Of a stretch of 64,000 nt of DNA, positions 11,802-43,986 are shown piece after piece. A program made the translations under genes and the position numbers. Numbering within the stretch: position 1 is the stretch's first letter; every line of letters starts with the position of its first letter. The notes below the pieces were generated by a model. That model had not been told where the DNA came from. It did not search any database and saw only the letters and a program-made list of their open reading frames with translations. Where the stretch lies: contig JAVZCB010000002.1 in NCBI GenBank assembly GCA_038874595.1, forward strand, positions 1-64,000, given 5' to 3'. The stretch comes from Candidatus Micrarchaeia archaeon (GTDB lineage Archaea; Micrarchaeota; Micrarchaeia; CAILAH01).

Positions 11802-12202
11802 GGCCGCGATGGTGCAATGGTAACATGGGGGGCTGTGGTGTGGTTTTCTTTTGGTGTTGTGCTAGCGCATTTCACCGAATGAAAACACCTAAAAACAAAC
11901 ACGGCCCTTTGCTCTTCGTGCAAATGGGCACGCAGAGATCCCCAGACCCGGGTTCGATACAGGGCCCCAGCGGGCCCCGTACCCCTTGCAACCATGAAAT
12001 ACAGGGCCCCAGCGGGCCCCGTACCCCTTGCAACCATGAAATACAGGGCCCCAGCGGGCCCCGTACCCCTTGCAACCATGAAATACAGGGCCCCAGCGGT
12101 GCACTTTTGCGATAGCAAAAGGCACCAACAAACCTTCAGGTTTGCTCGGCCCTGTACCACTTGCAATATTGTAGGGTATGTGCGAAAATCCCGGTCGCGG
12201 CC
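11802..12202 (+). tRNA. tRNA-His(GTG) with two introns: 99 nt at 37/38 (11839-11937) and 230 nt at T-loop 59/60 (11959-12188)
   Basis: Encoded G-1 and C73; acceptor GCCGCGA/TCGCGGC; anticodon GTG 11835-11837; BHB CTGT/GCAG; T-stem CCGGG/CCCGG split by an insert with TTCG/CGAA central helix. Confidence 0.9.
11957..12099 (+). repeat. 42-bp tandem repeat (3.4 copies) inside the tRNA-His T-loop intron
   Basis: ATACAGGGCCCCAGCGGGCCCCGTACCCCTTGCAACCATGAA at 11957, 11999 and 12041, partial at 12083. Confidence 0.95.
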
Positions 12203-12219
12203 TTCCTTTTTTTAATTCA

Positions 12220-12696
12220 TTAGCCTGCAACCTGCTGGCTTACACTCATTGACATCTTTATCAACAAGTCGCCTATGTATGATTCAAATGAGAAGCCGCA
12301 CTTCCTCCAAAACGCGAATGCGTGCTTGTTGCCGTTTACTACTGTAAGGTAAAGGCTTGTGATACCGTGAGATTGGGACCATTTAAGCGCTTCCTTGAAC
12401 AATTCAGTCATAATCCCATTTCCACGGTACCTCTCCTCAACATACGCTTCTGAAACCTTCCCATGCCCGTTTTCCTTTCTTGCAACCTTAATTATACCTA
12501 TTATGTTTCCATCTGATTCGGCTACAAAGTACGCACACCTACCTCTCTCCAAAAAATCATATGCCACGCGCTCCCGTATCTGGTCAGGGGAAGGCTTATT
12601 ATGTGTAAACTGGCTTTCAAATTCGGCCAGCTTGATGCATAATGTAATTACCTCCTCTATATCAAGGCTCGTGGCCTGCCGGATGCTGAACTTCAC
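12220..12696 (-). CDS. GNAT family N-acetyltransferase
   Basis: YVEERYRGNGI and N..A..FWRKCGF motifs. Confidence 0.85.
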   Translation of the reverse strand: MKFSIRQATSLDIEEVITLCIKLAEFESQFTHNKPSPDQIRERVAYDFLERGRCAYFVAESDGNIIGIIKVARKENGHGKVSEAYVEERYRGNGIMTELFKEALKWSQSHGITSLYLTVVNGNKHAFAFWRKCGFSFESYIGDLLIKMSMSVSQQVAG

Positions 12697-12727
12697 ATAT
12701 CAATTTAACGGCAAAAGCACAAAAGCG

Positions 12728-13702
12728 TTACTGTATTCGTGTTGAATAAGAAGAAAGGATACATTTCAAAAGGGTTATTCGTGATGCGGCATCCTTATTT
12801 TCAAGGGAGTACCCGCCCAAACGTCTAAGTATATTTTGTGTAAACGCCTCAACATCCTGCATCTCAGGCATGTTTTCTTTTTTGAGACGCCTGCGTGAAT
12901 AGCCAAGATGCATATAGGATTTTACTTCAACAAAATCTGGCTGTGCAAATGAGATTAATTTCGCAAAACCTTCAGCATCCGCATCAGAATCGTTCAGGCC
13001 CTTAATATGCGTAATACGGATTACCCTCCTTGTCCGGAACGTTTTCCAGATTTCCAGGGATTTCATAAGGCGCTCCCAGCCATCCCTGTAAAATGGCTGG
13101 CAAAGTTCATTATATTTCTCCTTGCAAGGCGCAACAAGTGATATGTAAAGCTGGGTTGGAAGCGCATCCTCATTCGCCAGGCGTTGCAGCATCTCAGGTT
13201 CTTGGCCGTTTGTTACCAGGAAAATTGTTTTTGTGTGGGGGCGCGCACGGATTGATTTTATCAGCTCTGGGAGTTTTGGGTATAATGTGGCCTCACCACT
13301 CAATGAGATTGCCCAGTGGTCAGGCTCGAGCGCCCGCTCCCACTGCATGCGCGGTGTGCGCACATCACCACCAAAGCCGTTTATCTGCTTCCTGCGCTCT
13401 GCAATGCACCCATTAATTATTAGCTCCGGAGAATCCATCTCACCAGTGAATTTAACCGGGTTTCTGAACATCTCCATTGGCCGCCAGCAATGCAGGCAGT
13501 TATGCTCACACCATGCCATTGCAGGGCTTATTTGTGCACAGCGGTCTGCGTGCACACCATAAAATTTCTCTTTATAGCACGTGCCACGGCCTGTTAGGGA
13601 TTTCTTTGTCCAGCCGCACACTTCAACGCCTGAATGCCTGCCCACTATACCGTAGTGCTTCTTCATGAAATTGGCCTTTAGCACATCATCAAGCGAAACC
13701 AT
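12728..13702 (-). CDS. taw1: 4-demethylwyosine synthase TYW1 (radical SAM)
   Basis: CYKEKFYG, CEHNCLHCWR, AISLSGEATLYP, VEVKSYM motifs. Confidence 0.93.
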   Translation of the reverse strand: MVSLDDVLKANFMKKHYGIVGRHSGVEVCGWTKKSLTGRGTCYKEKFYGVHADRCAQISPAMAWCEHNCLHCWRPMEMFRNPVKFTGEMDSPELIINGCIAERRKQINGFGGDVRTPRMQWERALEPDHWAISLSGEATLYPKLPELIKSIRARPHTKTIFLVTNGQEPEMLQRLANEDALPTQLYISLVAPCKEKYNELCQPFYRDGWERLMKSLEIWKTFRTRRVIRITHIKGLNDSDADAEGFAKLISFAQPDFVEVKSYMHLGYSRRRLKKENMPEMQDVEAFTQNILRRLGGYSLENKDAASRITLLKCILSSYSTRIQ

Positions 13703-13858
13703 ACAAAGAGTTGAAACACATAATTAATAAAAAAAGAAATTTGGCCATTGAGAGTTCTGCTTTCAGGGCATTTACAAAAATAAAACACAACTATTTGGCT
13801 AGAAAAACCATGTAAAAAGATTGCCTGTTTTAATTAAAAAAAGAATTAGGGATGCATT

Positions 13859-13924
13859 TTACTTTTTCTTGGAGGATTTCTTTTTTGCTGTTTTCTTTTT
13901 TGAGCCACAGCATTTACATGCCAT
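13859..13924 (-). CDS. Putative 21-aa Cys/Lys-rich microprotein MACKCCGSKKKTAKKKSSKKK
   Basis: Translated by hand; GGTGA SD 6 nt upstream; TATA-like TTTTTATATA ~35 nt upstream. Confidence 0.6.
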   Translation of the reverse strand: MACKCCGSKKKTAKKKSSKKK

Positions 13925-13989
13925 ATTTAATCACCAAATCCTATTCGTTGCATAAGTATATAAAAATAACTTCTGATTTCTGATATGAC

Positions 13990-14260
13990 TATGAGGAATT
14001 GCTTATACAAAAGCCAATAGATAACGTTGGCGCAATATCAGGGATGGCAAAAAGGTTCGAGAGAGCATACATCTATTAAATGCTGGGGATGTGGATAAGC
14101 TGCAAGCTTAAGGATTTGGGATTAAAACGGTTCAGGGAAAAGGGGCTGAAGCGTACTGATATTGGCACATATTGTGAAACAAAATGGCAATGGCAATTTA
14201 CAAGAAAAGTGGTTTGTGCCCACGGAGATTTGGCCGTGGAAAAAGATTGAAAAGTAAAAA
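13990..14260 (+). pseudogene. Possible decayed GNAT acetyltransferase remnant
   Basis: Fragments in different frames resemble GNAT motifs (LQA*GFG, FREKGLKR, AMAIYKKSGL). Confidence 0.25.
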
Positions 14261-14279
14261 GCAGGATAAGAATTGCCTT

Positions 14280-14648
14280 CTACCTCTCCTCATCTTCAAG
14301 CTCGAGCTCTTCCTCTTCAGCCTCGGTTTCTTCCAGCTCGTTCCACTCGTGCTCATACTCTTTGTCCCAATTAACCTCCCTCTTCTCATCCTCCTCCTCT
14401 TCGATAATCTCTTCTTCTTCGCTGTGAGTCAGCTCTTTCTCTTCCTCAAGCCTCTCTTCATAATTTTCGTGCATTGGAAATGCGGCTGCCTTTTGTGTCT
14501 TGCGCCTGCTTTTGTCCTTCTTAGGCTTTTTAGCTGTTGCGCGTGGCTTGCCAAGCTTTATAGATTTCTCTTTCTTTGCTGGATTTAAGGCCTTCTTTTT
14601 CAGTTTCTTGGCAGCTTGCTTTCTTGCCCTTTTTGCCTTGTGAGCCAT
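14280..14648 (-). CDS. Charge-segregated low-complexity protein (basic N-half, Glu-rich C-half)
   Basis: K/R/A-rich first ~55 aa, E-rich last ~60 aa; SD-like AGGTG upstream. Confidence 0.7.
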   Translation of the reverse strand: MAHKAKRARKQAAKKLKKKALNPAKKEKSIKLGKPRATAKKPKKDKSRRKTQKAAAFPMHENYEERLEEEKELTHSEEEEIIEEEEDEKREVNWDKEYEHEWNELEETEAEEEELELEDEER

Positions 14649-14708
14649 ACGAACACCTATCCCATTTCAAGCAAAAGGATTATTAATGTTGATTTTGCTA
14701 ATCCTCCA

Positions 14709-15311
14709 ATGGTGAGCTCTACAATAGAGGTAATAGGAAAGGGTGCAGAGGCATACATATACAAAGAGGGCGAATGTGCCGTTAAAGCCAGAGAAAAAAA
14801 GGATTATAGGCATCCTGCGCTGGACCTGGCACTCAGGAAAAAGAGGGCAAAAAAAGAAATGACTGCACTCAGAAAATGCTATGAGGCAGGGATACCGTGC
14901 CCGCGCCCCATATCACTTAGCGAAAGTACTATCATTATGGAGTATGTTGGTGGCGTGAGGTTGAGCGAGATATTTGAAACTGAAAGCCAAACGTCAAAGA
15001 AGAAATATGCGCAGGAGTGCGGCAGGCTTCTTGCAAGAATGCATTCAATTGGGATTTGCCATGGGGATTATGCACTCACAAACCTAATTTATAGCAACGG
15101 GGTTGTGCGCCCAATAGATTTTGGGCTTTGTGAGTTCTCAACATATCATGAAAAGAAGGCTGCGGACCTTGCCGTGATGTACAGCTCACTGGGTGATAGG
15201 GAAGTATTTAATGCGTTTATTGAAAGTTATAAGAAGGAATACGCTGATTCTGCACAGGTGATTGCAAGATTTGAAAAAAACTTAACACGCGGCAGATACA
15301 AGAAAAGGTGA
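14709..15311 (+). CDS. bud32: KEOPS kinase Bud32
   Basis: GKGAEA, K.YRHPALD, HGDY..TN, IDFGL motifs. Confidence 0.9.
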   Translation: MVSSTIEVIGKGAEAYIYKEGECAVKAREKKDYRHPALDLALRKKRAKKEMTALRKCYEAGIPCPRPISLSESTIIMEYVGGVRLSEIFETESQTSKKKYAQECGRLLARMHSIGICHGDYALTNLIYSNGVVRPIDFGLCEFSTYHEKKAADLAVMYSSLGDREVFNAFIESYKKEYADSAQVIARFEKNLTRGRYKKR

Positions 15312-15317
15312 TTCCCA

Positions 15318-16604
15318 CTGAAAATAAGATTTTATGGCGGGGCAGATGAAGTTGGGCGGAGCTGTATAGAAGTTATTGACGGTAGGAATTCACTTGTCAT
15401 GGATTACGGTGTTAAAATAGGAAAGGAGGAAGAGTACCCAATCATCAAAAAAGTACCAAAAAATATTGTAATAACACACGCACACCTTGACCATGCGGCA
15501 TACCTGCCGCACCTGTTTCGCAAAAGCAGGAAAACTGCTGTGTATATGACAAAGCCTACAAGGGACCTTATCCAGCTTATGATTGCAGACTATATGAGAG
15601 TAAGCAGGAACAATTTTGTTGATAATGGGAATGTCCTCAATAACATACTAAAAAATTGCAGGATTGCCGAGTATGGGGCTGTGGTAGATGCGGGAGTGAG
15701 GTTCAGCCTGCATAACTCGGGGCATATCCTTGGAAGCTCTTCCGTTTTGGTGTATAATGCAAAGGGGAACGTGCTGTACACATCTGATTTCAGCACGCGC
15801 GCATCAAGAATAATGGACCCTGCAGAGATGGGGCTTACTGCAAAAACTGCAATTGTTGAGAGCACTTATGGCGGAAAAGAGGATATGCTGCCTTCGAGCA
15901 AGGAGCTCGGCAAAAAGCTTATAGAGATAGTAAACCGCACACTTAAGAAAAACGGGCGGCTGCTCATACCCAGCTTTGCGGTTGGCAGGGGGCAGGAGCT
16001 CATACTAATGCTTGACTCTTATATGAAAGGGGGGCTGATAGAGCCTGCACCTATATACATAGATGGGATGATCAAGAAGGCTCTGCATATTTTCAGGCAT
16101 GATGTAATGTATGCACGAAAGGAGCTGCAGCATTCAATCCTATCAAGCGATTATGACCCTTTCAAGAGTAGGTACGTGTTCATCCCACAGAGCAGGGATA
16201 GGAAGGATGCAATAGAAGAAGGGAGCATTATCATCACAACATCAGGGATGCTGAAGGGAGGGCCTGTGATGACATACCTGAAAGAGCTGGCCGGGGATAA
16301 AAAGAACACACTGCTGTTTGTAGGGTACCAAGCGCCAGGGACGCCTGGGCGGGCAATAATAGATGGTACAAAAAGCATCCGGATACAAGGGCAGGAAGTA
16401 AAACTGAAAATGAAAGTTGAGATACTAAGGATGAGTGCACACGCTGACCACAACGGCCTTGTGCAATATTTAAATAATGTGAAGGGGTTGGAAAAGGTGT
16501 TTATTGTGCACGGTGAAGATAAAAAGCGGAAAGAGCTTGCAGAATCGCTCGACAAAAAATATGAAGTGTACCTTCCAAAAATCGGTGAGGAATTCAAGAT
16601 ATAA
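15318..16604 (+). CDS. Metallo-beta-lactamase/beta-CASP ribonuclease (aCPSF2-like), apparent CTG start
   Basis: HAHLDH, GHILGS, VESTYG, FAVGRGQE, SAHAD, VHGE; in-frame N-terminus KIRFYGGADEVGRSC begins at CTG 15318. Confidence 0.88.
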   Translation: MKIRFYGGADEVGRSCIEVIDGRNSLVMDYGVKIGKEEEYPIIKKVPKNIVITHAHLDHAAYLPHLFRKSRKTAVYMTKPTRDLIQLMIADYMRVSRNNFVDNGNVLNNILKNCRIAEYGAVVDAGVRFSLHNSGHILGSSSVLVYNAKGNVLYTSDFSTRASRIMDPAEMGLTAKTAIVESTYGGKEDMLPSSKELGKKLIEIVNRTLKKNGRLLIPSFAVGRGQELILMLDSYMKGGLIEPAPIYIDGMIKKALHIFRHDVMYARKELQHSILSSDYDPFKSRYVFIPQSRDRKDAIEEGSIIITTSGMLKGGPVMTYLKELAGDKKNTLLFVGYQAPGTPGRAIIDGTKSIRIQGQEVKLKMKVEILRMSAHADHNGLVQYLNNVKGLEKVFIVHGEDKKRKELAESLDKKYEVYLPKIGEEFKI

Positions 16605-16619
16605 CAAAAGCAGGGATGT

Positions 16620-16811
16620 TTACTTTATCTTGAGTGCATACTTGCCTGACATCTTAACATCCATCTGCTTGGCAAGTTCGGATGTTTCTGGATTAAGTAT
16701 TATAACAAACCCAGACCAGTTATCTGTGAGCTCGCTTGAGCCGCATGCTGGGCAGCTTTCTGCTCCGGTGCTCACATACCTGCATATTCTGCATGCCTTC
16801 TCAACACTCAT
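16620..16811 (-). CDS. spt4: Transcription elongation factor Spt4 (RpoE'')
   Basis: ACRICR...CPACGS, W.GFVII..PE.S..AK, GKYAL. Confidence 0.93.
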   Translation of the reverse strand: MSVEKACRICRYVSTGAESCPACGSSELTDNWSGFVIILNPETSELAKQMDVKMSGKYALKIK

Positions 16812-16828
16812 CTAAATTCACCTATACG

Positions 16829-17413
16829 CTACTCTTTCTTTTTCTTGGCGGCCTTCTCAGCACGGCCTTTTGCACCTTTTGTCTCCTTGTTCCACTCTTC
16901 CTTGCCAAGCCCGGGCGTCCTCATTGAGAGGCCAACCTTGGTCTCAAGAATTGTCGGTTTTATGCTCACTGTGATTATGCGTGCCTTAACAGTATCACCT
17001 TTCTTGAGAGTGCGCTTTGTATTCTTGCCTATGAGCTGTGCAGTCTTCCTGTCAAGCCGTACTATGTCATCTGTTACCTGCGAGAGATGAACAAGACCCT
17101 CAAGAGGCCCAAGTGACAAGAATGCCCCAAACTCAACAACTTCGGTCACTTCGCTCTCAACAATCTCGTTTATTTCTGGAAGATATGTTAGCATTTCAAA
17201 ATTTGCATCATAATATGCTGCGCCATCACCTGGCACAACATAGCCACCGCTTATATCGCGCACGCCTTGTATGCTGAGGACGACCCCCATATCAGTGTCC
17301 ATCTTCCGCTCATACTTCTCCCTTAAAATCTGGAGTATTGCATCCTCCTTTTTCATCGCGAACATCTCGGGCGGCACGCGGACTGTATCCATTATATTAT
17401 AAACCTTGTACAT
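16829..17413 (-). CDS. rpo7: RNA polymerase subunit Rpo7 (E')
   Basis: DTVRVPP, PGDGAAY, FGAF..LGP.EGLVHLSQ, MRTPGLGK motifs. Confidence 0.95.
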   Translation of the reverse strand: MYKVYNIMDTVRVPPEMFAMKKEDAILQILREKYERKMDTDMGVVLSIQGVRDISGGYVVPGDGAAYYDANFEMLTYLPEINEIVESEVTEVVEFGAFLSLGPLEGLVHLSQVTDDIVRLDRKTAQLIGKNTKRTLKKGDTVKARIITVSIKPTILETKVGLSMRTPGLGKEEWNKETKGAKGRAEKAAKKKKE

Positions 17414-17421
17414 CCTGACAC

Positions 17422-17805
17422 CTACGTGACTGCTATTTTGTTAGATTTAGTTATGCTTATAACTCTTATGCCACGCGCCCTGGCCGCTCTTGCGAGCCTG
17501 ATATCGACGGTGGCAATAAAGGGCTGTTTGAGCAGCCACTCATCCGGCTTTTCATATGAAGGGATTATTTTTATGCCCAGGCGACTGGCCAGCTTTAGTG
17601 CAAGTGCAGCATAGCCAGCCGCTGCCCGCGTTGAGCGCGAAATCAGCGATAGCTCGTTAATAACACCCTGGCTGGTGTAAAGGATTACTGGACCGTTGAG
17701 CGCTTCGCTTACCCTTTCCATTGGAATTTTCCTCTTCACCATAAATATAAGAAAGCTTGTGTCAACGGCAAGGCGCTGTTGCATAACCTTATTTATTTGA
17801 GGCAC
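17422..17805 (-). CDS. PIN-domain protein (Fcf1/Utp24-like)
   Basis: VDTSFL, V.NEL, ATVD..L; conserved position upstream of rpo7. Confidence 0.8.
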   Translation of the reverse strand: MPQINKVMQQRLAVDTSFLIFMVKRKIPMERVSEALNGPVILYTSQGVINELSLISRSTRAAAGYAALALKLASRLGIKIIPSYEKPDEWLLKQPFIATVDIRLARAARARGIRVISITKSNKIAVT

Positions 17806-17817
17806 TTATATATATCC

Positions 17818-18582
17818 ATGCCTGAGGGTGAAATCGAGGTTATCATTGACCCACGGAAAACCGTTAACGAGAATGCAAATGATTATTTTGAAGCTGCCAA
17901 AAAAGCAAAAGAGAAAGCAAAGAGGATACGCGAGATGATTGAGAGTGGGTTTGAGCTTGAGAATAAGAGTGCCGGGGCAAAAGAGGAAAAAGCAATGGCC
18001 AATGAAAAGCAGAAATGGTTTGAGCATTTCAGGTGGTTTTATTCCCAGAAGGGTTTCCTGGTTGTTGCAGGAAAAAACGCAAACCAGAATGAGAAGATTT
18101 ACAAAAGGGTAATGAGGGAGAATGACCTGTTTTTGCATGCGGAAATTGTGGGTGCGCCCTTCACAGTAATAAAAAACGGTCTTAACGCAGATGAAAGGAC
18201 TATTGCCGCGGCAGCACAGTTTGCAGCGAGCTATTCGCGTGCGTGGAAGTTTGGGTACGCATCTGTGGATGTTTATTCTGTAAGGAAAGAGCAGCTGACA
18301 AAAAAAGTGAGCGGGGCATATGTAAAAAAAGGAGGCATCATAATTACAGGTGAAAGGACGTGGTACAGAAATACGCCTCTTGGGCTGGCGGTTGGGTATT
18401 ACAATGATAAGTTGGCCTGTTTTCCTGTGATGTGCGCATCACTCCTAAAAAATCATGCTAAGATAGTTCCGGGGACACGTGAAAAGGAGGATGTTGCGAG
18501 AGAGATTGCACAAAAAATTGGTGCACGTGTGGATGATATAGTTGCACTGCTGCCAGCAGGAAACACTGCTATAATCAACTGA
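17818..18582 (+). CDS. NFACT RNA-binding domain protein (short Rqc2/FbpA-like)
   Basis: ENANDYF..AKK, WFEHFRWF, GKNA.QNE, FLHA...GAP, AASYSRAWK. Confidence 0.85.
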   Translation: MPEGEIEVIIDPRKTVNENANDYFEAAKKAKEKAKRIREMIESGFELENKSAGAKEEKAMANEKQKWFEHFRWFYSQKGFLVVAGKNANQNEKIYKRVMRENDLFLHAEIVGAPFTVIKNGLNADERTIAAAAQFAASYSRAWKFGYASVDVYSVRKEQLTKKVSGAYVKKGGIIITGERTWYRNTPLGLAVGYYNDKLACFPVMCASLLKNHAKIVPGTREKEDVAREIAQKIGARVDDIVALLPAGNTAIIN

Positions 18583-18750
18583 GCGCTTAAACTCAATTTG
18601 GCCATATGACCTGTTATAGCGACCTGCTCTTTAAGATTGCGCTAAAGCACAATATCCTCTATCTGTTGGCTCAACCATCTAAATATTTCTGGAAGAGGGT
18701 TATACCTCAATCAAATTATTTTTATTTCTTGCTCTTGTTAAAAATAGCAA

Positions 18751-18872
18751 GCTCCAATCGTCTAGTCCGGTTAAGGACACGGGCCTTTCAAGCCTGTAAC
18801 CCGGGTTCAAAGCAGGGCCTGCAGCCCGCACCTTTTGCAATGCTGGCGCCTGTGAAAGTCCCGGTTGGAGCT
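18751..18872 (+). tRNA. tRNA-Glu(TTC) with 47-nt T-loop intron at 59/60 (18812-18858)
   Basis: Acceptor GCTCCAA/TTGGAGC; anticodon TTC 18787-18789; strict BHB (TTCA/TGAA, outer CAGG/CCTG). Confidence 0.93.
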
Positions 18873-18947
18873 CTGATTTTTAAAAATGAGTGTTGAAAGC
18901 AAGATTAGGTAATATTTATATAATTGAAACCGCCTAACCATAACCCC

Positions 18948-20252: not shown

Positions 20253-20276
20253 GGTTGTTAATCTAATTATACTGCA

Positions 20277-24816: not shown

Positions 24817-24818
24817 GC

Positions 24819-33411: not shown

Positions 33412-34818
33412 TTAATAATCTCCTACTGATTCATCTTCGCTGGTTGATGATGGGTTCCACGTATAGTTATATTTAACATACCACTCGGTTACCCCGCCAT
33501 CATTTCGATTTGTTGTGAAGATATATTCATAATCCCAATCGCCTTTCTTGCCTTTTTCAAAAACTTTTCCTTCAACCAAGGTTATCGGCGCACTTACAAC
33601 AGCTATTTCTGCGGTGCTTATGCCCGGGTAGTTTGGATCAATCTCAACACTATAAATGCGAATAAAGTAATTGCCAATTTTACCCAGCTCACCGCTATTA
33701 ATCGTGCCTTTCGCAACCTCTGTGTTTGTGGAATCCACTACTTTTATGACTGCAACTGGTGGCTGGCCGTTTGTTCCTTCTGATATGCTCTCTATCTCAA
33801 TCTTGTTACCGCTATTATCAGGCACAACAAGCCGTTCCTTAACAAAGAGCCGGCCATTATAAATTATTTCTTTGTAAAGCGTTATGCTGTTCTCGGTAAC
33901 TTCATAGAGGTTAAAAAATTTGCGGCTCCAATTGATAAAGAAAAACAGTGCTGTCGCATGCCCATACGCTTTAATAGTAAGGGGTCCGCCAAACTCAGTC
34001 CTGACTTGAACAAGCAACTTATCTATACACGTGTACCCTCCATCCGGAAAGTAGCCATCAACATATCCATATGTTTCATACATTATCTGCCGATTTCCGT
34101 CCTTCATCACGTTTAAGAACGGGAAATCATCATACGTTCTATCAGATAATTCACACCTATCAATAACACTAGTGTCTGGCACGCCGCCTGTATCGGAATC
34201 CAACACATCTCCAGCATCAGAAACGTCCTCTGAATTGACGTCTTTAACATCTATATCTGGTAGTGCCCCGCCATCACTTGAAACATCGTCAACATCGGTA
34301 TCTGGTAGTGCCCCGCCATCACTTGAAATATCGTCAACATTATTATCTGGTAGTGCCCCGCCATCACTTGAAATATCGTCAACATCGGTATCTGGTAGTG
34401 CCCCGCCATCACTTGAAACATCGTCAACATCGGTATCTGGTAGTGCCCCGCCATCGCTTGAAACATCGTCAACATTAGTATCTGATGGCCTTCCTTTATC
34501 CGCTGAATCACTAACATCCGCAACTTTTATATCTGCTGGTGAATTTGCACCTTGCTGTGGGTTCTCACCACAATTAGTCAGAGTATTGAAAACAATGGCT
34601 GCGGTAAGAAGAGCTGTTGCCAACGCCCTTTTTCCTTTCTTTAGTGCACTAACACCTGCATTCTCTTCAGATTTTTCGTGTGGTTTTTTTGTATTCTCCC
34701 CTGCAATCTCGCAAGCGTTCTCATATGGCTGCTGCTTATGCATTTTTGCAAAAGCTTTCCAATTCTTACGGCATCTTTCAATCTTAGCATTTTCATTAGA
34801 TGGTTTGTATGTTCTCAT
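33412..34818 (-). CDS. S-layer-like surface lipoprotein with acidic 15-aa repeat stalk
   Basis: Hydrophobic stretch + TNC; DTDVDDVSSDGGALP x5; C-terminal domain similar to the neighbour 31661-33277. Confidence 0.6.
   Translation of the reverse strand: MRTYKPSNENAKIERCRKNWKAFAKMHKQQPYENACEIAGENTKKPHEKSEENAGVSALKKGKRALATALLTAAIVFNTLTNCGENPQQGANSPADIKVADVSDSADKGRPSDTNVDDVSSDGGALPDTDVDDVSSDGGALPDTDVDDISSDGGALPDNNVDDISSDGGALPDTDVDDVSSDGGALPDIDVKDVNSEDVSDAGDVLDSDTGGVPDTSVIDRCELSDRTYDDFPFLNVMKDGNRQIMYETYGYVDGYFPDGGYTCIDKLLVQVRTEFGGPLTIKAYGHATALFFFINWSRKFFNLYEVTENSITLYKEIIYNGRLFVKERLVVPDNSGNKIEIESISEGTNGQPPVAVIKVVDSTNTEVAKGTINSGELGKIGNYFIRIYSVEIDPNYPGISTAEIAVVSAPITLVEGKVFEKGKKGDWDYEYIFTTNRNDGGVTEWYVKYNYTWNPSSTSEDESVGDY
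34246..34484. repeat. 45-bp in-frame coding tandem repeat (~5 copies)
   Basis: TATCTGGTAGTGCCCCGCCATCACTTGAAACATCGTCAACATCGG, period 45. Confidence 0.95.
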
Positions 34819-35482: not shown

Positions 35483-35713
35483 ATGAGTGTTATGTCAAGT
35501 GAAGGCGGGCTGTACAAGGAATCCCAAAAAGAAGAAAAGAGAAAAGGGGATGTTTTCAAGGAAAAGGAGATTCTTAGGGAATCAAAAAAAGAGCACGCCT
35601 ACAAGGCACATGCTAAAAGATTGTCAAACAAGGAAATATTCTCCATGCTCTCGGGGTTCAAGAAGAAATGGGTGAAAGGCCTGCTCGGAGCGCTGAGAAA
35701 ACTGCTCGGCTAA
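35483..35713 (+). CDS. Small basic hypothetical protein
   Basis: 76-aa ORF downstream of TTTATAAA. Confidence 0.45.
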   Translation: MSVMSSEGGLYKESQKEEKRKGDVFKEKEILRESKKEHAYKAHAKRLSNKEIFSMLSGFKKKWVKGLLGALRKLLG

Positions 35714-35773
35714 AAATAACGAGCAGGGAAATTACGAAAGGGCGTCTCGCTTTGTTTTAATATGTGCATTGCA

Positions 35774-36352: not shown

Positions 36353-36404
36353 AACCCTTATTCTGCGGGAATGTTTAAATACATTGGAGGGCAAAAGCGC
36401 TACT

Positions 36405-36689
36405 ATGCATTGCAGGAGGCATGAGTATAAAGGAAAGGTTGTGTTTGCGCTGTGTGACAAGGACCTAATAGGCAAAAAGCTTGAGGAAGGAAGCATTGTG
36501 CTTGACCTTGATAAGTATAGGAATTTTTACATTGGTGATGACCTTGAATCGTTTGATGGCACATTTGAATCCATAAACGCGGTGGGTGAAAAAAGCACAA
36601 CCTTCCTTATCGAGAAGGGAATAGCGGCAAAAAAAGATTTGAAATATATAGCGGGCGTGCCAATTTTACAAGTGTACAAAATAAAGTAA
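36405..36689 (+). CDS. DUF424 family protein
   Basis: ALCDKDLIGK, NFY.G, INAVGE, I.GVP. Confidence 0.8.
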   Translation: MHCRRHEYKGKVVFALCDKDLIGKKLEEGSIVLDLDKYRNFYIGDDLESFDGTFESINAVGEKSTTFLIEKGIAAKKDLKYIAGVPILQVYKIK

Positions 36690-36756
36690 AAACATAATTA
36701 TGTGCTGGATTCTTTCTTGATCCACACAAGTTTTACAAATGTGCAAAATAAAGTAA
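36664..36756. repeat. 26-bp direct repeat of the DUF424 3' end flanking a 41-bp hairpin spacer
   Basis: TTTTACAAGTGTACAAAATAAAGTAA (36664) vs TTTTACAAATGTGCAAAATAAAGTAA (36731). Confidence 0.8.
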
Positions 36757-36889
36757 GTTGGGCAGTTAATAAGATTTCCCCTTATTAAGCAGCATAAGGA
36801 GATATACCACGAGCACGATATGGTTACCAAACTATTCCTGTTTTGCTCTGGGCTGGCAATCCTGCTGCAAGTGCTGTGCGGTCTTCACT

Positions 36890-37354
36890 CTATTCCTGCT
36901 TTCCTTTAAGCATTGATGATATTACAGGAACATCTATATCCTCGCCAAGTGCCGCCTTATATCCAACATAAATCCCATAGAGCCATACAACCCAGCCAAG
37001 GAATAACATCCAGAATAACACGCTCACTGCCCAAAGCATGGCAGACTGCTTGCAATGAAACACTGTGCGCTCTTCTTTATTTAGCAGGTATAGTATGAGC
37101 GAGCCGAGCGGGAAAAAGAAATATGCAAGGAAAATGTCCCATCTCCCTGCCGGTGCGCTTTTTTCCTCCCCTGGCTTTTTTAGGTCCTCAGCAAGCCCCT
37201 TTGACATCTCGGCTGGCACAACCATCTCGCTCTCACCTGTATCGTGCCTAAGCTTATTTTTCTCGTCTTCAAGGAACTTGCCAGCTATTTTCGGCTTTGC
37301 CTCTTTTGGCTCGGTTTTCTTGAAATCTGTCTTTTTCTTAAATGTGTCCACCAT
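36890..37354 (-). CDS. DUF4870-like membrane protein
   Basis: LAY...G....., FHCKQS, Y.GYKA..GE...VPVI. Confidence 0.7.
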   Translation of the reverse strand: MVDTFKKKTDFKKTEPKEAKPKIAGKFLEDEKNKLRHDTGESEMVVPAEMSKGLAEDLKKPGEEKSAPAGRWDIFLAYFFFPLGSLILYLLNKEERTVFHCKQSAMLWAVSVLFWMLFLGWVVWLYGIYVGYKAALGEDIDVPVISSMLKGKQE

Positions 37355-37362
37355 CCAACCAC

Positions 37363-37719
37363 CTATAACAACTTTAAGTGTTTTGTAAGAGGGTCAATAT
37401 CAGATGATTTTGCAGGGCCGATTGCAAGTGCAGTTATGGTACCCGGCTCAAGCTGCGTAAGGCCAGCATCCTGTATGAGTGCACACGGCAGGCCCGCTTT
37501 CCTTGCTAAGGTAAAAATTGATTGCATCTCTGCAAGAGAGGCCTTTACTGCAATCTTTTTCTCGCCCTGTAGTTTCCAGTCAGATACAGTGCGCGGCGTG
37601 CTTCTGGCTGCATCCTCAAACGCACGCACAGCTGCGTGGCACGCCTGCGCAACCGCTTTCCCCTTTCCCATCTGAAGGTCACTACGGATAATTATCACTT
37701 GCTTTATCTCATCAAGCAT
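37363..37719 (-). CDS. pth2: Peptidyl-tRNA hydrolase Pth2
   Basis: KQVIIIRSDL.MGKGK.VAQACHA, DAGLTQL.PGT.T.LAIGP. Confidence 0.95.
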   Translation of the reverse strand: MLDEIKQVIIIRSDLQMGKGKAVAQACHAAVRAFEDAARSTPRTVSDWKLQGEKKIAVKASLAEMQSIFTLARKAGLPCALIQDAGLTQLEPGTITALAIGPAKSSDIDPLTKHLKLL

Positions 37720-37764
37720 ACAGGAATCATTCTGCACTAAGTGTTAAATACATTTCAGAATGCA

Positions 37765-38763
37765 ATGATAAGGATGGAAGACATACGAGGGCTTGTCGAA
37801 GAGCTTCAAAAGGCCGAGCAGGCACGCATAAGCACTGCAAAGGAGCTACTAAAAATTGATGGGATAAAGGCTAAATGCGCAAACACGAATAGTGAAATTA
37901 ATATTAGGGTTGGGGCTGTTGATACGAGCATTATCCTGCAGGAGTTCCATGCGTTTGACCTTATGATAACAAAAACTGTTGGGGTTGTGTTTGAATACCA
38001 AAATGGGAGATTGAAAAGCCACGAGTATATACCTTCGCCGATGCCAAAGGAAAAGCTGCACGTTCACGGCTCAATGGACTTGATGGAGCTTGGGAATTAT
38101 AAGAGCATTGTGCGGCTGAAAGAGGAGATTTCGCTCGCAATCAGGATTGCTGAAAAGTGCGACCTCCTTTTGCTTGATGGATCGCTCGTTCCTCTCCCAG
38201 GTGATAAGCCATCATCAAAAGAGCTAAGAAAGGAATATGACGAATTGCTCGCGCTTTATAGGGAGCTGTTCTCAAAATATGAAAGCAAAATCGTAGGTGT
38301 AATTAAGGATTCACGAAGCAAGAGGCTTATGGAGGAATACTCCACACTTATTGATAGCTCTGTGATGTGCAATTCAACTGACAGCACACTGCTTGACCTG
38401 ATGCTTGAAAAAGGTGAGATGAGCAGGGTGCTTTCATACTCAAAGGACCCTAAAAGCAATGGTGTGCTGAAAGACCTCCTACCATATTCGGAGAGATTGA
38501 ATTGCGTGTACATCAAGCCTGGAAAGAATGACCGGCCAGTGCGGATTGAGATGTTTGGTAATGGGGAGGGTGTAATTGATAAGGTATATGCATTATGTGA
38601 TATAAACGATAACTATTCTTACCCCGCCGTACTTATTGATGTTGACCTGCGCGCGCTGATGGACCCCAGGAATGTTGAGAGGATATACAGGGAGATTGAG
38701 GTTGCACCTTACCTGAAAGATGTGCGCGCGCTCAGAAGGAACTCGCGGCCGTTCAGGACCTAG
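37765..38763 (+). CDS. nurA: NurA-family nuclease
   Basis: AVD.S, E, LLDGSL, G..K.S, YP..L..VD motifs. Confidence 0.8.
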   Translation: MIRMEDIRGLVEELQKAEQARISTAKELLKIDGIKAKCANTNSEINIRVGAVDTSIILQEFHAFDLMITKTVGVVFEYQNGRLKSHEYIPSPMPKEKLHVHGSMDLMELGNYKSIVRLKEEISLAIRIAEKCDLLLLDGSLVPLPGDKPSSKELRKEYDELLALYRELFSKYESKIVGVIKDSRSKRLMEEYSTLIDSSVMCNSTDSTLLDLMLEKGEMSRVLSYSKDPKSNGVLKDLLPYSERLNCVYIKPGKNDRPVRIEMFGNGEGVIDKVYALCDINDNYSYPAVLIDVDLRALMDPRNVERIYREIEVAPYLKDVRALRRNSRPFRT

Positions 38764-38837
38764 GGCTCCGAGAGAGTTCAGAATGAAAGCGCATATTTTT
38801 AGCAAAAAAGCTTATAAATGTTCTTTGGGAAAGTATT

Positions 38838-38918
38838 CCGTAGCTCCACTCCGAGTTGCGGCCATAGTGGTCGCCAAAACGCCACCGCCAGTCCCGATGG
38901 ACTGGCCTAATTCTTTTT
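38838..38918 (+). ncRNA. Candidate small structured RNA (three hairpins + U-tract)
   Basis: BRE/TATA AAAAAGCTTATAAA at 38804-38818; hairpins 38838-38861, 38867-38885, 38887-38906; T-tract 38911-38918. Confidence 0.45.
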
Positions 38919-38964
38919 AATGGCTTTGCATTAGCGTTAGCCTTACACACAGGCAAGACGCTGG

Positions 38965-41646
38965 TTACTGGCTTGCCCTGCGCATTGTGAGAATTCCTAT
39001 CCCTAAAAGCCCTATGAGAGCAGGGAGCACAAGGCACACTGATGGGCCAGATGGTTCCCCGGAGCGGATACACTTGTGTGCCTGGCACACATAGCCCGGA
39101 TCGCAATCGCTGTTTTTGTTGCAACTGCCCGTGCCTGCCGGCATATTTTGCCCTCCGCTTGCTGGCTTTTCGGAACAGACACCATTCCTGCACGAAATCC
39201 CAAGACCTTTGTAAACACACTCATAATCCTGCTGGCAGGGGATTTCCTTTGATAGTGGAACGGTTGCAGAGTAAACACCTATCGGCCTGCTCCCATCAAC
39301 CTTATCGTAGAACTCCTTTGTTGTTATTGTAAATGTTTCTGATGCCCTGTTGTTTGTATTGGGCTGGTACGCATACATTGTAATTGTTGCATCATACTCG
39401 CGCGGCGGGTACGGGACGTGTAATGCCCCTTCGGAAACTGGTACATCGTAGGAGTACGACAGGTGTGCATTTTCACCGCTAAACTTAACTTCTACGTGTA
39501 TCATAGCACCAGCGGTAACTGGATTGCCGTTTTGGTCAACAAGTGCAAGCTGGATTTCACTCCCGTTAAGCGCCTCAAGGTCGCTGCGGTAATCGGACGG
39601 CGCTGCACCGTTCCCTGAATAACCGAACGGCTCGCCCTGGTCCCATCTCCCATTATTATTTAGGTCCTGGTAGGCACCGTGCATAATAAATATCTTGTCA
39701 AGCTGTGTGATTCTCTTATCCTTGTCATAGTACTCAAGCAATGGCTTGTAGCCGGATGCGTTAAGCGCGATATACAGGTCACGCAGTGTTTTCACGTGCC
39801 TCACACCCTTTCCGTCACCGAAATCGCGCTTCTGCGAATATGCATCCATTAACGTTGAGATAGGGATAACTACAAAATCATCATCAATGCCCCCGCGCGC
39901 CTGCGGTGAATCGCGAAGGTCAATCAGCAGGGATGCAATCGCCATCTCCTCCATCATGCTGGGGTCGCTGTATTTGTTCTTCTCTCGGAAAACCTTCTCT
40001 TGCATCTGGTAATTGAGCTCAAGGTTGAATGCAACACCGCGTATGCGGTAAAGGTCATAATCAGGATTATCCTTGTAATAATTCTTCATCTCCCACGCAC
40101 AATACTCCGCCCATCCTTCAAGAAGGCCCCACTCTGAATTCGGGTTTGTGTAATAACCACCGTGGTCTACGCCCGGACGGCCTTCCTTTGTGCTGAACAG
40201 CTCGTTCTGTATGTGGTGGCAGTACTCGTGGTATATTGTATCTTCTATGTACGATGAAGTAAAAGAGGAGCTCATATCAAGAAGGCGCATCCCCGGCGCA
40301 TTTGGGTCATCGTCCTGCCACACCTCATCAACGTGGGTGTTGCCTTTCTTGTTATATATGAAGACCCTCTCTTTTACTGTTGAGGTTTTCTTGAATACAT
40401 TCTCCTTGAACTCAACCGCTTTCTGAGCGGTTACAAAAACCTTTGCAGCATCCGAGAGCTCCTGCACCTTATGACTTGTCAAGTCCATCTGGTAGTTTGA
40501 AAGGCGCGGGTCTGAAACCGGGATTGCATCTTCATATGAAAACCGTAATGGATAGTTTGGGTTATCCTCAACCACATACAGCCTTCCCTTTGACTCATCA
40601 AATACAACCTCAACCGAGATCTCATACCCGGGCTGGAATGCTTTCGGGTCATCCCAAACAAACCTGCCATTTTCATCTGTGGTAAGGTGGCCGTATGCGT
40701 AGATGTGAGTGTCCTTTACTGCAATCGTCTCTATTTTCACAAATTTGAGAGGAACCTTCTTGCCCACTGGGCTGTAATAAAACACCTCCCCCTGCATCTT
40801 CACCTGCCTGCACTTCGTGTTATCTTCACACCCCTGCGGGCACTGCTCCTCTTTATATGTACACGCACCCGTGCCTGGATCACACACGCCTTCAGTGTAC
40901 ATTACACCATTCTCGCACTTGTCAGGGCACTCTATACCAATACACTTGTTTTTTTGTGGTTGTGCTGCGGGCAGTGGCTTGGCGCAATCTATTTTGTAAA
41001 AGGTCTCACCACCATACGGGCAGTTGCACGAGCAGTCCATTACTGTATCCTTCCACTGCACATATGCCACAAACGCGCAGTCATTCCCAAGCTTTGCCTT
41101 GCAGTATGAGTTGCAGTAATCTGTAAGTGTTGTTGAACCATAGCAGGGATTCTTTTCCCCTGTGGGCTGTTCAGGGGGTTTCGATTGCCTGCATTTTGAT
41201 TCACAGGATGTTTGCACGGGCTTGCAGTACTTATCAAGAAGCGCATTGTAGCAATCGCTCTCCTTTTTCCTGCAATAGTCATCAAGCTCTGAGTAATCTG
41301 CCTGAATCTCGTTCGCTTTCATGCAGGACATATATAGGTTGTCACAGGTTGCCTCCTTTTCGGCCCTATAAGCTGCCCCTGGGTTTTCATAGTATTCAGA
41401 TGTGCCCCCTGATGACTGCACACCGCTCTTGCAGCGCCTGTATTCCCAGATGCAGTCAAAAGCGCACTGCTCCTCTGATGACATTGCATTGTAAGCAGTC
41501 ATGTCATAGAGTGCACAGTAGGAATATTCACACGCCCAGATTCCGGACATTGTCTCGCAATTTCTTGCGCATTCTATATAATCCATCTCGGCAAACACAA
41601 ATGTGATGCTGGACAAAACAAGCAGGAGCATTAGGTAAAATCTCAT
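38965..41646 (-). CDS. Large secreted Cys-rich zinc metalloprotease-like surface protein with C-terminal anchor
   Basis: Signal peptide; Cys-rich N-terminal region; HEYCH...EGWAE gluzincin-like motif; C-terminal TM + RR. Confidence 0.75.
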   Translation of the reverse strand: MRFYLMLLLVLSSITFVFAEMDYIECARNCETMSGIWACEYSYCALYDMTAYNAMSSEEQCAFDCIWEYRRCKSGVQSSGGTSEYYENPGAAYRAEKEATCDNLYMSCMKANEIQADYSELDDYCRKKESDCYNALLDKYCKPVQTSCESKCRQSKPPEQPTGEKNPCYGSTTLTDYCNSYCKAKLGNDCAFVAYVQWKDTVMDCSCNCPYGGETFYKIDCAKPLPAAQPQKNKCIGIECPDKCENGVMYTEGVCDPGTGACTYKEEQCPQGCEDNTKCRQVKMQGEVFYYSPVGKKVPLKFVKIETIAVKDTHIYAYGHLTTDENGRFVWDDPKAFQPGYEISVEVVFDESKGRLYVVEDNPNYPLRFSYEDAIPVSDPRLSNYQMDLTSHKVQELSDAAKVFVTAQKAVEFKENVFKKTSTVKERVFIYNKKGNTHVDEVWQDDDPNAPGMRLLDMSSSFTSSYIEDTIYHEYCHHIQNELFSTKEGRPGVDHGGYYTNPNSEWGLLEGWAEYCAWEMKNYYKDNPDYDLYRIRGVAFNLELNYQMQEKVFREKNKYSDPSMMEEMAIASLLIDLRDSPQARGGIDDDFVVIPISTLMDAYSQKRDFGDGKGVRHVKTLRDLYIALNASGYKPLLEYYDKDKRITQLDKIFIMHGAYQDLNNNGRWDQGEPFGYSGNGAAPSDYRSDLEALNGSEIQLALVDQNGNPVTAGAMIHVEVKFSGENAHLSYSYDVPVSEGALHVPYPPREYDATITMYAYQPNTNNRASETFTITTKEFYDKVDGSRPIGVYSATVPLSKEIPCQQDYECVYKGLGISCRNGVCSEKPASGGQNMPAGTGSCNKNSDCDPGYVCQAHKCIRSGEPSGPSVCLVLPALIGLLGIGILTMRRASQ

Positions 41647-41697
41647 GGATTAGAATAGATAAGAAACTATTTAAACACTCGAACCAAATAGTTATGC

Positions 41698-42615
41698 ATG
41701 GCGCAAACCACCGTTGCAAAAAATAAGGCCGAACTCCTGGAAGAAGCTAAGCTTACAGAAGCTGCAAAGAAGCCGATACTTGATATACTTAACGGTAAAA
41801 CTAGATATGCCGAGCTGTGGTATGGGACTAATGCTTCTATGGAGAAGGCGTTTGCACAAATAAAAGATATTTTGCCGGAAAGGGAGTTTTACCTGAAAAA
41901 AAAGACTGCTATCGACACTGATGGCAAAGAATACCATATTATAACAATCGCTGCACGTGTAAGTGCAAAGGAAGTGCCTGTTGTTAAAAGCAAGCCAGTG
42001 GTTCCTGTTAAAAAAGCACCTTCAATCCAGGTTGATAAGACTGATATGGATTACGGTGTGCTTTCAGATAAGTTTGGGGATAAGATTGCAACACAGATTG
42101 TATACTGGTCAAAAAAGTATGGTATTGACCCGCTGTTCGTGGCATCGCTGATTGTTGCAGAGCAATCCGGAAGAGCTGATAAAAATGCCCTTGAAATTGT
42201 TGGGAAGAGGCTTGCCAAAAACCCAAATTACTATAATAAGACAGTTTCAGGTGAGGGAAATATAGACAAGGAATCGCGCGGCTTGATGCAGATTACAAAG
42301 CCAACTTATGAAACAATCACAAAACTGATGGGATTGGGGAAAAGCGCAAAATCATATGAGGAAGTTGTTGGGGATCCTGCACTGTCAATAAGGTATGCTG
42401 CCAGGTATGTTGCATACCTGAAGAAAACACTTAATACTGAGGATATGGATGAGCTTGCCGCAGCATACAATGCTGGCCCTGGAAGAGTCAAGAGTGCAAA
42501 AGAGAAAAACAAAGATATGGGGAAACTATCGCTTGAATACAGGCAAAAAGTAAAAACTGCTTATATGCAGCTCGAGGCTGAAAAGAAGAGATTAGGAAGT
42601 GAAATAAAGGAATAG
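41698..42615 (+). CDS. SLT-family lytic transglycosylase domain protein
   Basis: YGIDP.FVASLI.AE(Q)S, GLMQI, AAYNAGPGRV. Confidence 0.88.
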   Translation: MAQTTVAKNKAELLEEAKLTEAAKKPILDILNGKTRYAELWYGTNASMEKAFAQIKDILPEREFYLKKKTAIDTDGKEYHIITIAARVSAKEVPVVKSKPVVPVKKAPSIQVDKTDMDYGVLSDKFGDKIATQIVYWSKKYGIDPLFVASLIVAEQSGRADKNALEIVGKRLAKNPNYYNKTVSGEGNIDKESRGLMQITKPTYETITKLMGLGKSAKSYEEVVGDPALSIRYAARYVAYLKKTLNTEDMDELAAAYNAGPGRVKSAKEKNKDMGKLSLEYRQKVKTAYMQLEAEKKRLGSEIKE

Positions 42616-42647
42616 CTTAATTTTGATTTTGCAATGCCCAGCATCTC

Positions 42648-43364
42648 TTAATCTTCCATAAAATATGCTGCTGTTGGGTCTCCCATATCAGCAAGCTCTT
42701 TCAAATAAGAGGTAAGCTTTTTGTTGGATTTTACCCTTTTTATATCCAGCCAAATATCTGCCCACTTGTTGCCGCATTCTATTGCATCCAACACTTTAAG
42801 CATAGAACTCATATCGTTTTTTAGGCCTAACCACGTAAGAAGGCGGTATTTGAGTGAATTTGTTACAACCTGTTTTACGTAAGCACGAATGCTAGAAATC
42901 TTATTCTTAATTTGTTTATTTGAGATTGATTGATTTTCTGGGATTTGCTGTGGATTTGCAGTATCGTCCAATACGCTCCCTTTATTTCTTAATGCAACCA
43001 AGATTGCATCCATTATCTTATTTATATCGTCCGATGGTTGCTTATGATCTTCCTTCGGGGCCATCTCTTGAGTAGGCTGCTTATGGTTTTCGTCTTTGGG
43101 CGATGGGTTCTCCTTCGGGGCCATCTCTTGAGTAGGCTGCTTATGGTTTTCGTCTTTGGGCGGTAGGTTTTTCTTTTGGGCCAATTCACGAAGCTTTAAA
43201 GCTACCGCAGATGCCAAAATACTCTGGTTTTCTGCCGCATCCTTCATCATACCAAAATTTGATTGCCTTTTCTCAATTGAAGAATCTCTCTTATCTATGT
43301 TTTGTGTGGTTATCTTTCCAGTACCCATAAAAACGTACCCGCTTCCTAAGTATTTATTTGCCAT
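42648..43364 (-). CDS. Hypothetical protein with 20-aa internal repeat
   Basis: PKDENHKQPTQEMAPKE x2. Confidence 0.6.
   Translation of the reverse strand: MANKYLGSGYVFMGTGKITTQNIDKRDSSIEKRQSNFGMMKDAAENQSILASAVALKLRELAQKKNLPPKDENHKQPTQEMAPKENPSPKDENHKQPTQEMAPKEDHKQPSDDINKIMDAILVALRNKGSVLDDTANPQQIPENQSISNKQIKNKISSIRAYVKQVVTNSLKYRLLTWLGLKNDMSSMLKVLDAIECGNKWADIWLDIKRVKSNKKLTSYLKELADMGDPTAAYFMED
43039..43162. repeat. 60-bp coding tandem repeat (~2 copies)
   Basis: TCCTTCGGGGCCATCTCTTGAGTAGGCTGCTTATGGTTTTCGTCTTTGGGCG at 43051 and 43111. Confidence 0.9.
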
Positions 43365-43432
43365 ATCTTGTATTTATATGTTTCCCTTTATGGTTACAAA
43401 TTCGCTAAGGCGCAGGGCATACAATGAGCATC

Positions 43433-43750
43433 TTATTTCTTTGTTTGTTTTGTATTTTTAGCAACCCATTTCTCAAAAGCAGGCGTTGATGAAGAATTCC
43501 ACGTAATAATTGCTGGAAGCTCGTAAGGGTGTGATTTATTGATTATTGCAATTGCGCTCTTTCTTTTGGCAGGAGTGGTCTTGGCAATAAGAATAAACTC
43601 AATAGTATCTTGTAATGTGCCTTTCCACTCATAAATGCTACGTGATTTTATAATGTTTGCGCAAGCCGCTACACGTGCTGTAATGAGCTGCCTTGCAACA
43701 ACCTTTGCGGATTTGAAATTCGGAAATGGCGAGTAAATTAATGTAACCAT
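43433..43750 (-). CDS. cutA: Divalent-cation tolerance protein CutA
   Basis: AACANI, SIYEWKG, KT, HPYELPAI. Confidence 0.92.
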   Translation of the reverse strand: MVTLIYSPFPNFKSAKVVARQLITARVAACANIIKSRSIYEWKGTLQDTIEFILIAKTTPAKRKSAIAIINKSHPYELPAIITWNSSSTPAFEKWVAKNTKQTKK

Positions 43751-43842
43751 GTATTCAGATGTTCATAAAATAATAAAAGCCTGTGCCACTATAAAAAATC
43801 AATAAGCAATTAGTACCGGCAAGCCGAAAGGTTTAGGAGCAT

Positions 43843-43986
43843 GGCTCCCTACAACTTCGGGTTGCCGGGGTGGTAGGGCCAAGCAAACCGAAAGGTTTGC
43901 GGGCACCTTTTGCAGACGCAAAAGTGTGGGCGCCGGCTCCCTACAACTTCGGGTTGCCGGGGTGGTAGGGGGCGCCGGCTCCCTAC
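43843..43986. repeat. Hairpin-element array (92-bp long unit + 42-bp short unit) abutting the tRNA-Cys 5' end
   Basis: GGCTCCCTACAACTTCGGGTTGCCGGGGTGGTAGGG at 43843 and 43935; GGCTCCCTAC again at 43977. Confidence 0.9.

Follow-up and report, generated by a model that had tools for sequence, protein, structure and literature searches.

The window analysed here, the first 64,000 nt of contig C2 (C2:1-64000) of the Micrarchaeia genome G000, contains copies of a short hairpin element that forms a dispersed, apparently mobile, tRNA-associated family occurring in both orientations. The new result of this analysis is a polarity rule: the element lies in sense at RNA 5' ends and in antisense at RNA 3' ends, and each tRNA joint coincides with the cleavage site of RNase P, EndA or tRNase Z. 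It is quite possible, if somewhat short of probable, that the element is mobile and non-autonomous, derives from RNA and has been copied into DNA at the ends where RNA is processed. G000 is a 918-kb genome in seven contigs (93.5% complete), and G001-G008 are the other genomes of the same Micrarchaeia family (nine in all, completeness 61-93.5%).

Polarity at RNA cut sites

On one strand the element reads as a G-rich flank followed by a terminal hairpin, the last base of which is a fixed 3' end; the 5' end is ragged. Short forms of about 35-45 nt and long forms of 75-90 nt were found, arrays are tandem, and the stem sequence differs from copy to copy. Sense matches in tRNA leaders place the 3' hairpin end on the base before tRNA +1 (offset 0) in 18/22 cases, and three of the four others are upstream tandem units. 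Antisense copies in T-loop introns (position 59/60) begin at the 5' splice site (11 at offset 0 and one at offset 1, n = 14), and 13/14 of those in anticodon-loop introns (37/38) lie at offset 0-2 from the 5' splice site. The mirror orientations show no phasing. For a flank-free control, hairpin closure at offset 0 was compared with 25 other offsets: closure fell on offset 0 in 21/199 leaders, with 0-5 at any of the other offsets, and in 21/83 T-loop introns. The T-loop cases comprise 19 tRNA species, and since 17 of them are confined to a single genome, these insertions are largely separate events.

Sense joints are found at tRNA +1, within introns at position 38 and, where a trailer carries a duplicated tRNA 3' end, at position 60; antisense joints are found at positions 37 and 59, at one D-loop site, at one site just past a tRNA 3' end and at several stop codons. 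The same joints recur independently across many tRNAs, and a second family of like build, module B, follows the same mirror rule in 7/7 intron copies. Copies outside introns often have a target duplication of 11-50 nt, and those not at tRNAs either abut stop codons in antisense or lie between 11-50 nt duplications of gene ends. At glmM of G007 the first codons are replaced by the element, which supplies a GTG in the reading frame; in a related strain the sequence at the ATG is different. A scan of G000 for copies flush with start codons, which covered that genome only, returned none. Intron ends as decayed target duplications were ruled out (2.4 vs 2.7 matches).

The rule bears on the idea that an ordinary repeat was inserted randomly and that deletion bias and selection then eroded the spacers until the hairpin touched the exon. 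A streamlined genome (91% of G000 is coding) and the general duplication of gene ends (16/827 open reading frames, ORFs) would suit such erosion, but it predicts neither the orientation rule nor offset 0 in the T-loop, where the bulge-helix-bulge (BHB) geometry favours offset 1, and near-identical recent copies (98%) are already flush. We regard it as very improbable.

Inverted copies at tRNA-His and tRNA-Cys

Two loci of the window, listed by position and strand, carry long and short units in opposite orientations.

11803-12202, plus strand: tRNA-His(GTG), exons 11803-11838, 11938-11958 and 12189-12202
11839-11937, plus strand: 37/38 intron of tRNA-His, 99 nt
11959-12188, plus strand: 59/60 (T-loop) intron of tRNA-His, 230 nt
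11959-12084, minus strand: three identical 42-nt short units of the element in the His intron
12085-12160, minus strand: His long unit, a terminal stem around two inner hairpins, preceded by the G-rich flank
12161-12188, plus strand: tail of the His intron, the BHB partner; CGAA at 12183-12186 pairs with TTCG of the T-loop, with a 2-bp inner helix
43815-43852, plus strand: degenerate, 5'-truncated unit heading the Cys leader array
43853-43944, plus strand: Cys leader long unit (92 nt), whose hairpins are capped by UUCG and GAAA tetraloops
43945-43986, plus strand: Cys leader short unit, 42 nt, its terminal hairpin ending one base before G1 of tRNA-Cys
43987-44227, plus strand: tRNA-Cys(GCA), with a 37/38 intron at 44023-44192
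44122-44192, plus strand: module B (two hairpins plus a terminal hairpin), in sense, ending at the 3' splice site

In the His T-loop intron the 3' hairpin of the last minus-strand short unit ends on the first intron base (offset 0, the 5' splice site). The element-bearing leader of tRNA-Cys spans 43815-43986; the first-pass annotation had rightly put a copy there, with the correction that the hairpin ends exactly on the base preceding G1. The Cys long unit is 98% identical to the leader of tRNA-Phe on contig C5 of G000.

The inverted similarity between the His intron and the Cys leader, claimed from the sequence at first reading, was recovered: the reverse complement of 12102-12160 matches 43870-43926 with 47/59 identity (E 7e-8 against the genome). 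The local score is 57 inverted vs 23 on the same strand, and 0/5000 structure-preserving shuffles reach 57 (maximum 30). Because these shuffles stay at or below 30, the inversion is real, and a hairpin-palindrome artefact or a circular permutation on one strand is ruled out. The 42-nt period of the short units was likewise found at both loci, the units being homologous in inverted orientation (p 0.001). The T-loop intron of tRNA-Glu had been taken for a forward copy; forward similarity is present (p 0.008), yet the His orientation fits at least as well (p 0.001).

18751-18872, plus strand: tRNA-Glu(TTC); its T-loop intron (18812-18858, 47 nt) is a degenerate short unit that fits either orientation

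Folding indicates which strand counts. Of the introns that begin with the element, 20/27 fold less well on the transcribed strand, whereas 159/231 other introns fold better on it (contrast p 2e-4, rows not independent). For the terminal hairpin by itself, folding is better on the element strand in 17/21, and wobble pairs G.T vs A.C on the element strand stand at 7:1. Since folding and wobble pairs both favour the element strand, the His copy is a reversed copy of leader-type sequence and not shaped as intron RNA; on this evidence it is the inverted one of the two. A reversed copy needs a copying step, and reverse splicing alone, which had been doubted as a source of both orientations, is thereby excluded.

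The sequencing runs in which the locus occurs are hot-spring metagenomes, and an element-derived pattern recovers Micrarchaeota/Micrarchaeia contigs of metagenome-assembled genomes that match G002, G007 and G008. As to misassembly, unitigs of two studies tile the Cys locus, long unit included, and none bridges a tandem junction with 31 bases to each side, which leaves the Cys tandem copy number without independent confirmation; one tiling run may be the source sample. That the whole pattern is an assembly artefact of repeats is hardly credible. Unitigs do break at repeats, the tandem number is unbridged and N gaps occur in such arrays of some relatives; against this, the same architecture with different sequence is present in seven other assemblies and in one other family, and the Cys locus is tiled by the two studies. 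The neighbouring genes are ordinary (GNAT, M24 peptidase, CutA).

Occurrence in the family

A custom parser found 45 tRNA genes in G000, the permuted tRNA-Ala included. ARAGORN reported one tRNA only in the 64-kb window, and tRNA-His(GTG) was missed by ARAGORN and Rfam; the practical point is that most tRNA genes of this Micrarchaeia family escape standard tools. In eight family genomes 205 tRNA genes were parsed; a 37/38 intron is present in 163 of them and a 59/60 intron in 115, and intron lengths vary widely among orthologous genes; those in the element family are as long as 230-386 nt. The circularly permuted tRNA-Ala(TGC) lies in the 16S-23S spacer (G000:C3:80600-80970, minus strand), with the 3' half first and inserts in both halves.

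Further copies at tRNAs had been expected, and in G000 all matches of a model trained on leader copies only (11/11) lie at tRNA genes, although tRNA genes plus 250 nt cover only 3.4% of the genome. Corresponding values, given after unplaced matches were read, are 8/8 in G002, 14/16 in G007, 11/12 in G008 and 6/7 in G006. Leader copies of G000 precede tRNA-Phe, Ser-GGA, Ser-TGA and two Leu genes, intron copies are found in Gln-CTG, Trp, Pro-CGG, Ile and Leu-TAG, and one further copy sits between protein genes. The suggested preference for tRNA loci was borne out, with a copy in 5/34 tRNA-bearing vs 1/278 other intergenic segments (p 6e-5, crude gene mask). Across 150 genomes of the class, the element is present in 8/9 genomes of this family and in 3/141 outside it, with clear copies in one of these (G099), all at gene ends. 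The inner hairpins covary (95.6% paired, 17 compensatory cells, 0/500 shuffles, above slid controls), a signal that sequence kinship can inflate. No Rfam covariance model matches the element, no description of it was found in the searched literature (subscription papers lay outside its coverage), and viral contigs yielded no copy; of five loose-pattern matches there, the two examined are unrelated.

Both filled and empty orthologous sites, the contrast that the first-pass annotation had called for, were found among the family genomes: sites are empty at Phe in G005 and G006, at Leu-GAG in G007 and G008 and at Ser-GGA in three genomes. Leader copies are closer to paralogues of the same genome than to orthologues in 10/13 cases. 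The flush copy at tRNA-Cys is present in 6/6 genomes of two genera with differing sequence and may represent one old event, later homogenised.

Such retention fits a hairpin selected by the host for processing or stability, which would mark cut sites (+1 and splice sites) and spread by gene conversion without being selfish. The six flush Cys leaders favour this account, as do the Asn introns ending in the hairpin, which lack an H helix and are kept in four genomes from two genera, and the UUCG and GNRA loops on the leader strand. It is nonetheless improbable: orthologous sites are often empty (Phe, Leu-GAG, Ser-GGA), the intron copies fold better on the untranscribed strand, gene conversion does not produce inversion, and copies occur at glmM and at stop codons.

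A purine-rich variant and another module shared among introns were also noted; the latter, which forms a 49-nt T-loop intron in tRNA-Asp(GTC) (gene at window 50012-50132), recurs in Ala, Asn, Cys and Glu introns of G000 or relatives.

58754-58873, plus strand: purine-rich variant hairpin with a 70-nt period, ending at +1 of tRNA-Ser(GCT), downstream of the signal recognition particle RNA

Splicing of element-bearing introns

Judged by its sequence, the His T-loop intron qualifies as a BHB substrate, with a 4-bp H helix (TTCG/CGAA), 3-nt bulges at both splice sites and a 2-bp inner helix. EndA, RtcB and RNase P RNA are encoded in G000 (with an assembly gap inside endA), and relatives have a three-unit EndA of about 390 aa. 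Beside the three-unit endonuclease a second EndA-like gene of 161 aa is found (G006:C32; orthologue G000:C2:131201-131647), and G006:C49:39632-42307 holds an RtcB frame of 965 aa whose match is split, probably by an intein.

In at least 12 anticodon-loop introns that end in the element hairpin, 0-1/4 H pairs form at the 3' splice site; these are Asn introns of four genomes, Val-CAC introns of four, three Thr cases, and Ile and iMet copies. The genomes concerned are G005, G006, G007 and G008 for Asn-GTT and G000, G001, G002 and G006 for Val-CAC. The inner helix is also missing in 68/160 canonical introns. The earlier proposal that the element is tolerated through BHB splicing therefore stands for antisense intron copies and not for leader copies, where RNase P would act, nor for introns with the element at their end and no H helix. 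The epsilon2 EndA is described as cutting relaxed motifs that still retain H (PMC3239211).

Duplicated tRNA and gene ends

Copies of tRNA 3' ends stand in trailers, a case in the window being that of tRNA-Ala(GGC):

556-815, plus strand: tRNA-Ala(GGC) and, behind it, two repeats of its 3' end, each beginning at position 60, with a 63-nt period

The T-loop of this gene is empty in G000 and element-filled in the relative G002. Trailer copies start at 59-60 in 16/27 rows, genes without a T-loop intron included. In G000 such trailers lie at window 669-815, C6:28300-28680, C3:54770-54975 and C4:79070-79190; the 27 copies, which include relatives, mostly start at position 59-63 with other hairpin modules between them, and some modules bear the 3' strand of the tRNA as a short antisense copy. 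Among protein genes, the last 24 nt are repeated downstream in 16/827 G000 ORFs, some diverged (e.g. window 22096 and 54499-54734). A 45-nt tandem repeat of six copies was seen within a 468-aa ORF (window 34196-34529).

Search for mobilising enzymes

The window had been said to hold no visible mobilising enzyme; the check was extended to G000, where it found none above cut-off, DDE families not being searched, and in part to the other family genomes. Y1 enzymes of the RAYT/TnpA type were above cut-off in 0/9 family genomes (a weak match at G000 C6 was rejected as it has no HUH motif), and tyrosine integrase was found in 0/9; no tyrosine recombinase, not even of Xer type, was present in the nine genomes at E 0.05. 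In G000, neither Y2, IS110 nor TnpB exceeded the cut-off, an HUH motif scan gave no match, and Cas1 was not detected; within the family Cas1 occurs only in G007, where it adjoins a 629-aa Cas12f/TnpB-like gene (G007:C1:57841-60513). No guide sequence matching a target was found. Since no Thg1 was found above cut-off in the nine family genomes, 3'-5' tRNA extension is unsupported; stand-alone RNA ligase PF09414 was not found in G000 or G008. A stand-alone LigD-like Prim-Pol is encoded at G000:C2:140570-141448 (minus strand in the extracted locus). As a general driver it was rejected: in the family it is known from G000 and G002 only and was not found with this query in the element-rich G001, G006, G007 and G008. 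LigD-like Prim-Pol is patchy in Micrarchaeia (15/121 genomes).

These searches bear on a non-autonomous DNA-level element, REP/REPIN-like (repetitive extragenic palindrome) or IS91/Helitron-like, in which an unrecognised HUH-type or other enzyme would nick the hairpin foot and single-stranded copies would enter gene ends and folded tRNA genes, weakly preferring NNNG, while the role of RNA processing would be limited to letting copies survive. The fixed hairpin end, covarying stems, tandem arrays and both orientations speak for it, as do non-tRNA copies with duplications, a G at +4 after most joints and a GTAG...CTAC foot on one G000 variant. It is rendered unlikely by the enzyme results just given, by a variable foot (GTAG, GCAG, ATAG, GCGG, CGAAG, AAAG), by use of the same bond on both strands at 37/38 and 59/60, though where that bond sits in a DNA hairpin depends on the strand, and by the lack of a target-matching guide and of copies in viral contigs. 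The first-pass annotation had preferred a DNA-level element; with joints on RNase P and EndA cut sites and a strict polarity, this is not favoured over an RNA-templated route. Its assignment to MITEs (miniature inverted-repeat transposable elements) or REPs was dropped, since paired terminal inverted repeats with a target duplication of fixed size are missing, the foot is not an invariant GTAG and no Y1 enzyme was found.

Proposed mechanism

Under the RNA-derived reading, leader copies flush at +1 would be transcribed and freed by RNase P, giving an RNA with exactly the 3' end of the element. A template-end-jumping polymerase, or ligation plus reverse transcription, could then join this end to processed tRNA or mRNA fragments or to their cDNA, and one reaction would yield both orientations, depending on whether the 3' terminus that the element 3' end encounters belongs to a processed RNA or to run-off cDNA made from it. 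The joined product would recombine into the cognate gene, a single crossover duplicating the fragment. Antisense copies at 37/38 or 59/60 would become or enlarge introns removed by EndA/RtcB, and RNase P or tRNase Z would trim leader and trailer copies. An enzyme acting in trans may do the copying. Retrotransposition of RtcB-ligated U6/L1 chimeras provides a precedent in another domain of life (PMC6789731). The fuller proposal, an undescribed archaeal retro-element class whose RNase P-made RNA 3' end is written into ends cut by RNase P, EndA and tRNase Z, creating introns of which some are removed without a BHB helix, is more tentative.

Several observations weigh against an RNA-derived origin. 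In G000 (93.5% complete) neither Pfam RVT_1 nor tblastn nor a motif scan detected a reverse transcriptase, and the sole one of the family is DGR-like (diversity-generating retroelement) and belongs to G001. Duplicated 3' ends bear no added CCA. Intron joints have no target duplication. Leaders with a flush copy are restricted to tRNAs whose position 4 is G (11/11 species, vs 20/45 having it overall), and RNase P does not account for this restriction. Copies in G099 and in metagenome contigs are at gene ends, not at tRNAs. Gene-end duplicates in G001 and G099 differ mostly synonymously, and such differences suggest that some of these duplicates stem from DNA of another allele. The G001 enzyme, of 426 aa and DGR appearance, adjoins a likely target gene (L060:1255-2535), and a similar gene lies beside endA (L248).

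Comparison with known systems

As far as PMC4090602 describes the transposed BHB tRNA introns of Thermoproteales, their mechanism is not known (Fujishima 2010, cited there). Element introns resemble them in sharing sequence across unrelated tRNAs; unlike the introns portrayed in that account, the element also stands outside introns, reversed, flush with +1, 3' exons and gene ends, and shows polarity, tandem arrays and introns of up to 230-386 nt. It is not confined to introns in one orientation: leader, trailer and gene-end copies exist, and both orientations occur. ARMAN-2 (Micrarchaeum) shares the archaeal class, the 59/60 intron position, a three-unit EndA and relaxed BHB motifs, but its cited 59/60 introns measure 13-25 nt and have the H helix, which some introns here lack, and no repeat family is described (PMC3239211).

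The element is similar to SINEs (short interspersed nuclear elements) and U6/L1 chimeras (PMC6789731) in its fixed 3' end, ragged 5' end, variable target duplication and processed-RNA joints, and its flank resembles the 5' end of Ser/Leu/Cys tRNAs. Unlike SINEs, it has no partner retroelement and no A tail, its host is archaeal and intron joints show no duplication. Duplicated tRNA fragments and intron gain tied to an inserted element are shared with tRNA-integrating elements (Caldiarchaeum model, PMC3293823); here, in contrast, no recombinase gene is found, inserts are 40-200 nt and duplicates begin at 59-63, after the T-loop. Unlike an IS110 bridge-RNA element, neither a recombinase nor a target-matching guide was found. 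MITEs differ as well, the element having one fixed end only and duplications that are absent at introns and 11-50 nt elsewhere.

REP/REPIN sequences with RAYT and elements derived from IS200/IS605 are short GC-rich hairpins, often in tandem at non-coding sites, without an enzyme of their own. The element is likewise an imperfect GC-rich palindrome, dispersed and in tandem, non-coding and without its own enzyme, but it has six different feet, no invariant GTAG/GGAG, no Y1 found and a base-exact placement at RNA-processing sites. In sum it acts like the transposed introns of Thermoproteales, to the extent that PMC4090602 describes them, and looks like REP, and fits neither MITEs, REPs, integrative islands nor, without a reverse transcriptase, SINEs.

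A 2026 census of Asgard archaea found no general route by which tRNA introns arrive (10.64898/2026.10.13.758758). With a donor sequence named outside introns, the arrival of archaeal tRNA introns becomes testable in this family, because the copies include recent, near-identical ones, sites occur both filled and empty, and the polarity rule is exact to the base. Single-copy tRNAs (Asn) whose introns have no H helix would moreover broaden the range of archaeal splicing substrates.

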